Source of the DNA: Patescibacteria group bacterium
Lineage (GTDB): Bacteria > Patescibacteriota > Minisyncoccia > RBG-13-40-8-A
Direction of reading: 5' to 3'
Length of the DNA stretch: 32,000 nucleotides
Assembly (NCBI GenBank): GCA_049322295.1
Contig: JBMORO010000040.1
Span: 33,960-65,959, forward strand
This document shows positions 2,714 through 2,953 of this stretch, one piece after another (positions within the stretch are counted from its first letter, which is position 1; each line of letters begins with the position of its first letter). The notes below the pieces were generated by a model, which was not told the origin of the DNA, did no database searches, and was given only the letters and a program-made list of their open reading frames with translations. The translations under genes were made by a program, and so were the position numbers.

Positions 2714-2953
2714 TTATTTTTTATCTGTTTCACCCTTCGGGTGGCCACCCGTAGCCTTTTGGCGTAGGGTGGCATTTTCTCTTAATAAGGTTAATATTCT
2801 AGCTATAGTCTTCTTCGTCTGGTGAATTTCCCTAATGTTTTTAACCTTGCCACCGACTAAATTAAATCTTAATTCTCTTAATTTGTCCCTTAAACTAATT
2901 AAATTCTCTTTTAATTCTCTTTCTGATTTTTGTCTGAGTTCTCTTATTTTCAT
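2714..2953 (-). CDS. rpmC: 50S ribosomal protein L29 (with ~15-20 aa C-terminal tail encoded by a GC-rich hairpin insert)
   Basis: MKIRELRQKSERELKENLISLRDKLRELRFNL is a typical L29 start. The tail NATLRQKATGGHPKGETDKK is encoded by 2731-2773. Confidence 0.95.
   Translation of the reverse strand: MKIRELRQKSERELKENLISLRDKLRELRFNLVGGKVKNIREIHQTKKTIARILTLLRENATLRQKATGGHPKGETDKK
2731..2773. repeat. GC-rich compound hairpin inside the rpmC 3' coding end
   Basis: CACCC-TTC-GGGTG lies at 2731-2743. It is followed by GCCACCC (2744-2750) ... GCC-TTTT-GGC ... GGGTGGC (2767-2773). It shares the 11-mer CTTCGGGTGGC (minus-sense GCCACCCGAAG) with the rplW insert. Confidence 0.6.

Follow-up and report, generated by a model that had tools for sequence, protein, structure and literature searches.

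The double hairpins of the window

The stretch analysed here, called the window throughout, comprises 32,000 nt of contig JBMORO010000040.1 from a Patescibacteria group bacterium and carries on its minus strand an S10/spc ribosomal protein (r-protein) operon in the order S10, L3, L4, L23, L2, S19, L22, S3, L16, L29, S17, L14, L24, L5, S14, S8. Homologues of its L29 are labelled Candidatus Portnoybacteria-like, within the Candidate Phyla Radiation (CPR)/Patescibacteria. Genome GC content, taken from the composition of the window, is ~35%, and of all 40-nt stretches in the r-protein region the one richest in GC (67.5%) belongs to a palindromic segment of 43 nt at 2731-2773, within the L29 gene rpmC and close to the start of the S17 gene rpsQ (Table 1). 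This segment, and the short double hairpins related to it in other r-protein genes and other genomes, are the subject of the present analysis.

RNAfold of the mRNA strand of the segment returned exactly two abutting hairpins, those that a first-pass annotation made from the sequence had pointed out, with a minimum free energy of -26 kcal/mol compared with -13.2 +/- 2.6 kcal/mol for shuffled sequences (z = -4.98; 0/200 shuffles equal). Hairpin 1 continues inward from its outer stem with a 3x3 internal loop (UAC/UAC), then the inner stem GCC/GGC and finally the loop AAAA. The rpmC reading frame stays open across the segment and encodes ...NATLRQKATGGHPKGETDKK, so that the extra tail of L29, which contains the peptide ATGGHPKGETDK, spans residues 60-79 (2776-2717), of which residues 61-74 are encoded by the hairpins. 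L29 orthologues are mostly 61-67 aa long and end 12-18 residues before the window protein; their alignment confirmed the earlier proposal that the segment encodes a tail past the usual end of L29, and showed this tail to be lineage-specific, variable and absent from most relatives. An intrinsic terminator was ruled out because AAAC/AAAA and not a U-tract lies 3' of the hairpins on the mRNA strand, inside an open reading frame (ORF).

Table 1 Coordinates of the window features (whole-window numbering) and r-protein hosts of the 30-nt family
Feature	Position	Strand	Sequence, reading or basis
rpmC (L29)	2714..2953	minus	79 aa; stop codon 2716-2714; ORF list, Pfam PF00831 on homologues, L29 alignment
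rpsQ (S17)	2439..2711	minus	AUG 2 nt past rpmC stop
Hairpin 1 (rpmC)	2773-2744	minus	GCCACCC-UAC-GCC-AAAA-GGC-UAC-GGGUGGC (mRNA strand); sequence and fold
Outer stem of hairpin 1, GCCACCC/GGGUGGC	2773-2767 with 2750-2744	minus	
Hairpin 2 (rpmC)	2743-2731	minus	CACCC-GAA-GGGUG, abuts hairpin 1; sequence and fold
First hairpin (rplW)	6144..6178	minus	AGCCACCC-GAA-[GCUCC-GAA-GGAGC]-GAG-GGGUGGCU, in L23 N-terminal extension
Second hairpin (rplW)	6102..6140	minus	UCCGCC-GAA-[GCUCCGAC-UCGUC-GUCGGAGC]-GGA-GGAGGA
Host S17, N-terminus			read as SPRLVRLGR
Host L29, tail			read as QPKAGRPRA or QPTADHPKG
Host S3, internal			read as SAKGGSASGG
Hosts L18 and L15, internal			
Host S5, N-terminus			
Host L22, C-terminal extension			
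Host L24/L5, gene junction			

The 11-mer GCCACCCGAAG of the coding strand occurs exactly twice in the window (2735-2745 and 6167-6177, both on the minus strand), and the two occurrences are read in different frames, as G-G-H-P-K-G in rpmC and as E-P-P-E-A-P in the L23 gene rplW, just as the first-pass annotation had stated. With one mismatch or none the window holds 3 matches vs 0.2 expected, and GCCACCC occurs 7 times vs 1.4 expected. The rplW occurrence belongs to a second hairpin pair with a fold of -49.4 kcal/mol (z = -5.65). The outer stem of its first hairpin is identical to that of rpmC hairpin 1, and the outer arms of its second hairpin resemble, with one mismatch, the stem UCCGCC/GGCGGA that is canonical for the family described below; hairpins are nested in the loops of both stems, AGCCACCC/GGGUGGCU and UCCGCC/GGAGGA. 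In a close relative, locus L165, the L23 extension lacks hairpins. L23 might instead have started downstream of the hairpins and left them intergenic, but this was ruled out, since no in-frame start codon lies past the GGAGGAGG run and since the N-terminal extension is conserved across the clade. This Lys-rich extension of ~45-60 aa (rplW 5811-6257 and loci L081-L158) overlaps the end of rplD, follows the motif M-A/P-L-F-x-K-I-K-N-I-F-K-K...PKKK-GEVY, and represents a hot spot of GC-rich hairpin inserts of several kinds.

Copies in related genomes

Species-representative genomes, with a best S3 identity of ~48%, were of no use for covariation. The relatives compared here are 80 metagenome loci with L29, obtained from a metagenome scan using the L29 alignment and designated by L and three digits. 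At the rpmC/rpsQ junction most of them hold no GC-rich segment, and the start codon of S17 falls within the 3' end of rpmC, in a different frame (...aaacaacAUGaaaaacaaUAA...); in element-free loci such as L087, L092 and L094 the two genes overlap out of frame by 8-26 nt with the S17 AUG within the last rpmC codons, apparently the ancestral arrangement. Roughly a quarter of the 80 loci carry two abutting GC-rich hairpins at this junction, with stems that vary in sequence (CAGCC/GGCUG, UCGGCC/GGCCGA, UCCGCC/GGCGGA, CACCC/GGGUG, CCCGAC/GUCGGG, CGCCCC/GGGGCG). The hairpins are translated as an L29 tail in the window and in L081-L083, L085, L088, L107 and L114. L29 stops ahead of them in L086, L091, L101, L118/L120, L127, L129, L133 and L157, where the hairpins become S17 residues ~10-19, TSPRLV(S/R/G)(P/L)G(L/R/P); L129 belongs to contig Ga0315293_10000016 (165 kb) and L157 to contig Ga0315284_10000009 (339 kb). 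Insertion resolves the rpmC/rpsQ overlap in two ways in different lineages, the insert being absorbed by L29 or by S17. In a neighbour-joining tree of L16, the L29 core and S17, the junction element is spread over at least 10 lineages, and sister lineages are often empty.

Because the same hairpins are read in different frames in L29 and S17, the conserved thing at the junction is, to judge from these alignments, the nucleotide structure and not the peptide. The first-pass annotation had drawn this conclusion from the rplW copy, and both the S17 reading in many relatives and the covariation of the stems bear it out. The comparison also speaks to the idea that L29 and L23, which adjoin each other where the ribosomal tunnel ends, carry selected peptide extensions, with the hairpins as a by-product of GC-rich Gly, Pro, Ala and Arg codons. 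The clade-wide conservation of the Lys-rich N-terminal extension of L23 (~50 aa) and the presence of the tail motif GHPKGE in several orthologues of L29 would suit such protein-level adaptation. However, the same nucleotides are translated as S17 in many relatives and yield three distinct peptides in other proteins, most L29 orthologues, a 93%-identical one included, have no tail, compensatory changes in the stems alter the peptide, and a fold z-score of -5 goes beyond what codon composition alone predicts. We consider selection for the peptides highly improbable.

Other junction copies indicate how the window segment may have been built up. In the close relatives L165 and L167 the same site holds a simpler pair, CCACC-UCUGC-GGGUGG then UCACCC-GAA-GGGUGA, with the 3' flank AAACAGAUAAAAAAUAA as in the window, and L114 has UCAGCC-UAC-GGCUGA then UCACCC-GAA-GGGUGA; hairpin 2 of the window is orthologous to the UCACCC-GAA-GGGUGA hairpin of these three loci. 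The inner module GCC-AAAA-GGC-UAC in the loop of hairpin 1 is found in the window, L081 and L083, with UAC on both sides. Because L165 and L167 carry a hairpin at the same site without it, this module (~2763-2751) looks like a secondary insertion into the original hairpin 1 loop.

Double hairpins of this kind are not confined to rpmC and rplW. Pairs of abutting 6-bp stems with 3-nt loops were searched for in ~470 kb of relatives' loci, which consist nearly entirely of r-protein genes, and in 740 kb of non-CPR r-protein loci. The search recovered 26 GC-rich canonical copies (24 unique sequences) from the relatives and none of the GC-rich canonical type from the non-CPR loci; double hairpins of any architecture numbered 45 vs 7 in shuffled sequence. 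The canonical unit is exactly 30 nt long, [YCNGCC-NNN-GGCNGR][UCNNCC-NNN-GGNNGA], usually followed by AAAA or AAAG, with a GC content of 60-77% vs ~35% for the genome and with A/T-rich flanks (aaaata..., ...aaagaa; 24 copies). Besides rplW in the window, at least 8 other r-protein contexts in relatives hold copies (Table 1), which answers the earlier suggestion that the motif should be sought elsewhere. The units are mostly free of stop codons, family copies are translated in all three reading frames, and the S3, L18, L15, S5, S17 and L22 ORFs remain intact despite the 30-nt insert. The first-pass annotation had envisaged a small structured insertion tolerated in frame at protein termini. Insertion and in-frame tolerance are supported, whereas the limitation to termini falls, since S3, L18 and L15 loops and intergenic junctions are also occupied; the small unit itself is refined to the 30-nt double hairpin, and the 43-nt window copy is an elaborated member of the 30-nt family.

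Copies occur in both orientations: the copy in L22 of L131 differs at 1 position from the reverse complement of the L086 copy but at 7 from its forward sequence, and the S5 copies match the reverse complement of that in S3 with 1 mismatch. Furthermore, 30-mers differing by 0-1 bases are shared across genes and genomes (S3, L15, S5), and a double hairpin of the CCCGAC type makes up the tail of L29 in L088 and is also present in the N-terminal extension of L23 in L092, L095 and L129. These recurrences matter for the proposal that the hairpins arose de novo at each site by replication errors, i.e., by template switching and quasi-palindrome formation in A-rich runs, and are not copies of an element. 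The lack of target-site duplication, the A/T-rich runs as flanks, the nested hairpins in loops and the duplicated triplets (UAC...UAC and GAA...GAG) are all compatible with such errors, and template switching likewise keeps arms perfectly complementary. Independent origin nevertheless fails to account for the near-identical 30-mers in different genes and genomes and for the same CCCGAC-type pair in L29 of one genome and L23 of others, and we regard de novo formation site by site as very unlikely.

Filled and empty sites could be compared directly in two cases. At the S3 site, 50/55 loci are empty (tattt|aaagg) and 5/55 are filled (tattt[TCCGCCAAAGGCGGATCCGCCTCGGGCGGA]aaagg), the 30-nt block being the sole difference, and no target duplication was seen among the 55 loci. 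The five filled loci form two groups, and the most similar S3 sequences among those listed are empty. Loci L129 and L138 share 97.6% identity across 3.5 kb, have the same flanks and differ by a net 30 nt at the rpmC/rpsQ junction (a 32-nt gap with the element inside vs a 2-nt gap), again with no flanking duplication at this junction site. The same two loci also differ in the L22 extension, which is completely different and holds a larger CCCGCC...GGCGGG double hairpin.

The larger hairpins of this last type constitute a second family, CCCGCC...(20-40 nt)...AAGCA-GGCGGG CCCGCC-ACAAUCCRAAGGUUUG-GGCGGG, which we observed in L22 C-terminal and L23 N-terminal extensions: in L129 at ~3700-3830 (vs L138), in rplW of L081 and L108, and in rplV of L090 and L098. 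Canonical-type 30-nt double hairpins were also noted in three contigs of the IMG/VR viral collection (L161 4886-4915, L162 390-419, L164 4944-4973), one example being UCCGCC-AAA-GGCGGA UCCGCC-UCA-GGCGGA; L164 has a GC content of 48-56%. Of these copies, one is intergenic and comes just past a large ORF with repeats (possibly a terminase), another lies upstream of a gene, and the third is found just before an ORF stop. From these contigs it would follow that the 30-nt family, or a convergent one, extends beyond Portnoybacteria.

The stems of 21 distinct copies were aligned and compared with 500 shuffles and with slid structures. The two local hairpins have 99.2% paired cells, 26 cells changed on both sides and five covarying pairs; for instance, 11 copies have A-U as the third pair of hairpin 2, 8 have C-G and 2 have G-C. 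None of the 500 shuffles matched the observed pairing or covariation, and the slid controls reached at most 47% paired. Loop sequences are not conserved among copies. Non-Watson-Crick pairs in the canonical copies comprise six G-U on the sense strand and one A-C (~p = 0.06), and a wider scan of GC hairpins with one mismatch gave G-U vs A-C at 7 to 4 plus 23 others, mostly chance matches. The alternative pairing of CACCC with the distal GGGUG, also put forward in the first-pass annotation, can form in the window sequence, but the family does not favour it: pairing of the 5' arm of hairpin 1 with the 3' arm of hairpin 2 is 80% in the alignment vs 78% in shuffles and is without covariation support, and this long-range structure was rejected.

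Probable mobility and the alternatives

We favour, with a probability of roughly 70%, the reading that the window segment is one copy of a dispersed, GC-rich, non-autonomous family of palindromic mobile elements in r-protein operons of Portnoybacteria-like CPR bacteria. Mobility is argued by near-identical copies at non-homologous sites, in both orientations and three frames, and by filled and empty sites that differ by a clean 30-nt block, with near-identical strains differing in its presence. The element would spread as DNA. As no target duplication is made, the mover is possibly a single-strand transposase recognising hairpins; alternatively, strains may exchange copies by homologous recombination within the conserved r-protein genes on either side. 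Either target preference or such recombination via conserved flanks would fit the recurrence at one site in lineages that are not sisters. Survival in essential genes would be allowed by short length, few stop codons and a length that is a multiple of three, with surviving copies sitting at termini, disordered extensions, surface loops or gene junctions. In the window, the element would have landed in the formerly overlapping rpmC/rpsQ junction, whereupon the L29 frame ran through it to a new UAA, producing the tail, and S17 came to be started from the AUG just downstream; hairpin 1 may later have grown through a small hairpin nested in it. Probably the element needs its hairpins in order to propagate, or else intra-palindrome correction keeps them perfect, and the encoded peptide needs no role.

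Several observations weigh against mobility. A purely selfish genome-wide element should also appear outside r-protein loci, and the 116 kb made up of NrdD neighbourhoods of five related genomes (92 kb) and window positions 8001-32000 yielded no canonical copy, with ~6 expected at the density of the r-protein loci, a weak enrichment test because the comparison uses different genomes, which may lack the family. No element-derived insertion was present in 120 NrdD homologues, a poor test as NrdD is tightly constrained. Among the genes of the 32-kb window, which include type IV pilus genes, ComEC, NrdD/NrdG, HtrA and similar, there is no transposase or other mobilising gene. The near-perfect stems and the 6 to 1 excess of sense-strand G-U pairs could reflect selection on mRNA structure and not a young age or self-correction of the copies. 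Finally, for the element to recur at one and the same junction in distant lineages, either a target preference or spread mediated by recombination would be required.

An unlikely alternative is that r-protein mRNAs have repeatedly recruited the double hairpins as functional cis-acting RNA modules, with translation incidental; they could serve as a binding site for a trans-acting regulator, in ribosome pausing or translational coupling at junctions, or as an mRNA-stabilising structure. The absence of copies from the 116 kb and the NrdD homologues can be read in this way, as all canonical copies seen lie in r-protein operons, although the sampled loci are nearly all r-protein genes and the enrichment test is correspondingly weak. 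The 99% stem pairing with compensatory changes at an orthologous site and the six G-U pairs against one A-C agree with selection on RNA, yet the strand bias is not significant and the wider scan is uninformative. Many copies lie at or just upstream of start codons (rpmC/rpsQ, L24/L5, the S5 and S17 N-termini), but others occupy internal positions in S3, L18 and L15, and copies occur in both orientations. Moreover, most relatives are empty at every site and near-identical strains differ, the loop sequences are not conserved, the hairpins have no Rfam match, and similar double hairpins occur in unrelated IMG/VR contigs of ~50% GC.

True restriction to r-protein operons would point to functional RNA or to targeted homing. 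The double hairpins could be more than tolerated junk and form a structure-specific module tied to CPR r-protein operons, a broader proposal that we likewise consider unlikely. In its homing version, the machinery could target r-protein genes as highly expressed and highly conserved sites; in its RNA version, the module could be a regulator-binding or ribosome-pausing signal that tunes r-protein stoichiometry in organisms without classical leaders. If this proposal is true, translation through the hairpins is also a source of new r-protein tails and loops.

Under the preferred reading of a mobile palindrome, the 30-nt element moves gene boundaries and makes lineage- or strain-specific r-protein tails and loops, so that gene calling, marker alignments and strain typing are affected. 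The rpmC/rpsQ junction offers a natural experiment on the repair of an overlapping gene junction after insertion, with the insert absorbed by L29 or S17, and the element illustrates how new peptide segments originate from selfish DNA. A phenomenon of Rickettsia and mitochondria is thereby extended to a third group with small AT-rich genomes, and two 6-bp hairpins without target duplication provide a very small substrate for studying the movement of palindromes.

Known palindromic repeats and other repeats of the window

The family is like Rickettsia palindromic elements (RPEs), mitochondrial double-hairpin elements and GC clusters, yet a member of none of them, and our literature search found no papers on such elements in CPR/Patescibacteria. 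RPEs are palindromic selfish DNA of ~100-150 bp inserted in frame in coding genes, each encoding one conserved peptide in one frame (Ogata et al. 2000, via PMC10969869 and PMC3733652). The present copies share with them the in-frame insertion of palindromic repeats into functional, often essential genes of a small AT-rich bacterial genome with ORFs left intact, the translation as an extra peptide, the dispersal over unrelated genes and the lack of an own transposase. They differ in being only 30 nt long (43 nt in the window), read in three frames and inserted in both orientations, where an RPE encodes one conserved peptide. RPEs also bear a CGTC tag (PMC3733652), which is missing next to the stems in 24 copies here. 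In addition, the present elements consist of two tandem short hairpins and RPEs of one long palindrome.

The double-hairpin elements of Paquin et al. are reportedly 26-79 nt long and present in coding regions as well as in variable parts of rRNA genes. They come from mitochondria of Allomyces and other fungi (Paquin, Laforest and Lang 2000, as cited in PMC5910586), and yeast mitochondria have a 48-nt GC cluster inside var1/rps3, with AG or ACT flanking direct repeats and nesting or merging of units described for such clusters (PMC4478555). The mitochondrial elements are likewise short GC-rich palindromes in an AT-rich genome, with two adjacent hairpins in the double-hairpin type; they are dispersed and sporadic among strains, their units merge, nest and shuffle, and recombination via conserved flanks has been proposed. 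The 48-nt cluster in mitochondrial rps3 (PMC4478555) has its counterpart here in a 30-nt copy in bacterial rpsC. The mitochondrial elements are organellar and mostly intergenic, whereas the present ones belong to a free bacterial lineage and lie mostly in or at the edges of r-protein genes. The AG/ACT direct repeats of the yeast clusters (PMC4478555) contrast with the absence of duplication at the S3 and L129/L138 sites.

Repetitive extragenic palindromic (REP) sequences, bacterial interspersed mosaic elements (BIMEs) and REP doublets forming hairpins (REPINs) are short stem-loop repeats of 20-40 nt with 5-13 bp stems that are mobilised by REP-associated tyrosine transposases (RAYTs) (PMC3733652). 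The resemblance lies in short stem-loops that are occasionally intragenic, that presumably act as single-stranded DNA hairpins and that leave no target duplication. Unlike REPs, the copies lack a GTAG/CGTC tag outside the stem in the flank listing, form tandem abutting hairpins in place of head-to-head or tail-to-tail dimers, and are mostly translated, REPs being mainly extragenic and downstream of genes. The 32-kb window contains no gene for an IS200/IS605-type Y1 transposase (RAYT). We know of no RAYT in these genomes.

Transposable elements of the MITE (miniature inverted-repeat) kind have terminal inverted repeats, a target-site duplication and a length of 70-300 bp (PMC3733652), in contrast to the 30-nt element without target-site duplication described here. 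Leader or autoregulatory RNA motifs of r-protein operons form a category in Rfam (PMC11109978). They are similar in being structured RNA in r-protein operons, sometimes directly upstream of a start codon, but the present copies lie outside the 5' untranslated region, in many genes and in both orientations, and are strain-polymorphic. In the Rfam comparison only a tRNA reached the gathering score in the window, and nothing relevant appeared at E <= 5 in positions 1-8000.

A longer element of ~140 nt occurs in three copies at 339-475, 4020-4158 and 20201-20341 (minus strand as mRNA). It is built from terminal inverted repeats of 20 nt (CCCCGUAC..UUCGAC ... GUCGAA..GUACGGGG), together with an inner hairpin that is GC-rich and a centre that is AT-rich, folds with z = -6.0 to -7.5, and fills the S8/L6 gap, the L22/S3 gap and the gap upstream of an HtrA-like gene, its 3' end abutting or containing the start codon. 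None of the copies has an Rfam match (two of them, in 1-8000, up to E <= 5; that at 20201-20341 at gathering score only). In L165 only 2 nt separate L22 and S3, where the window has this element. The ~140-nt elements, a family distinct from the 30-nt element, could be MITE-like or a translational control structure.

Across the whole window, short GC-rich perfect hairpins number 10 vs 1.7 in shuffles. Four isolated ones lie outside the r-protein operon (13844-13860, 31036-31048, 21791-21805 and 17995-18008), among them GCAGCC-GAAUA-GGCUGC just beyond the 3' end of a metallo-beta-lactamase-fold gene and AGCCC-AAC-GGGCU in an intergenic position; the other two lie within ORFs. Two AT-rich repeats were also noted. 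One, of 40-76 nt, consists of TACAAAT/TTTGTA units (TGTCTACAAAAnTACAAAT...TTTGTAnnTTTGTAG) and is placed at 7479-7517, 7983-8059, 24902-24978, 28314-28390 and 29828-29904, in intergenic gaps, adjacent to the start of L3, of S10 and of three type IV pilus genes; a promoter, operator or leader function could be considered. The other is a common 60-nt leader ending ...UUGACUGAAGGGAAUAUG (mRNA strand) upstream of rpsN, rpsG and rpsL (1063-1124, 12005-12066 and 12543-12604), which may be a common ribosome-binding or leader region of these three small-subunit genes. Lastly, the anaerobic ribonucleotide reductases of some relatives, NrdD homologues P0138, P0151, P0152 and P0191, are ~1090-1115 aa long and have intein/LAGLIDADG Pfam domains, which the NrdD of the window (16701-18815) does not.

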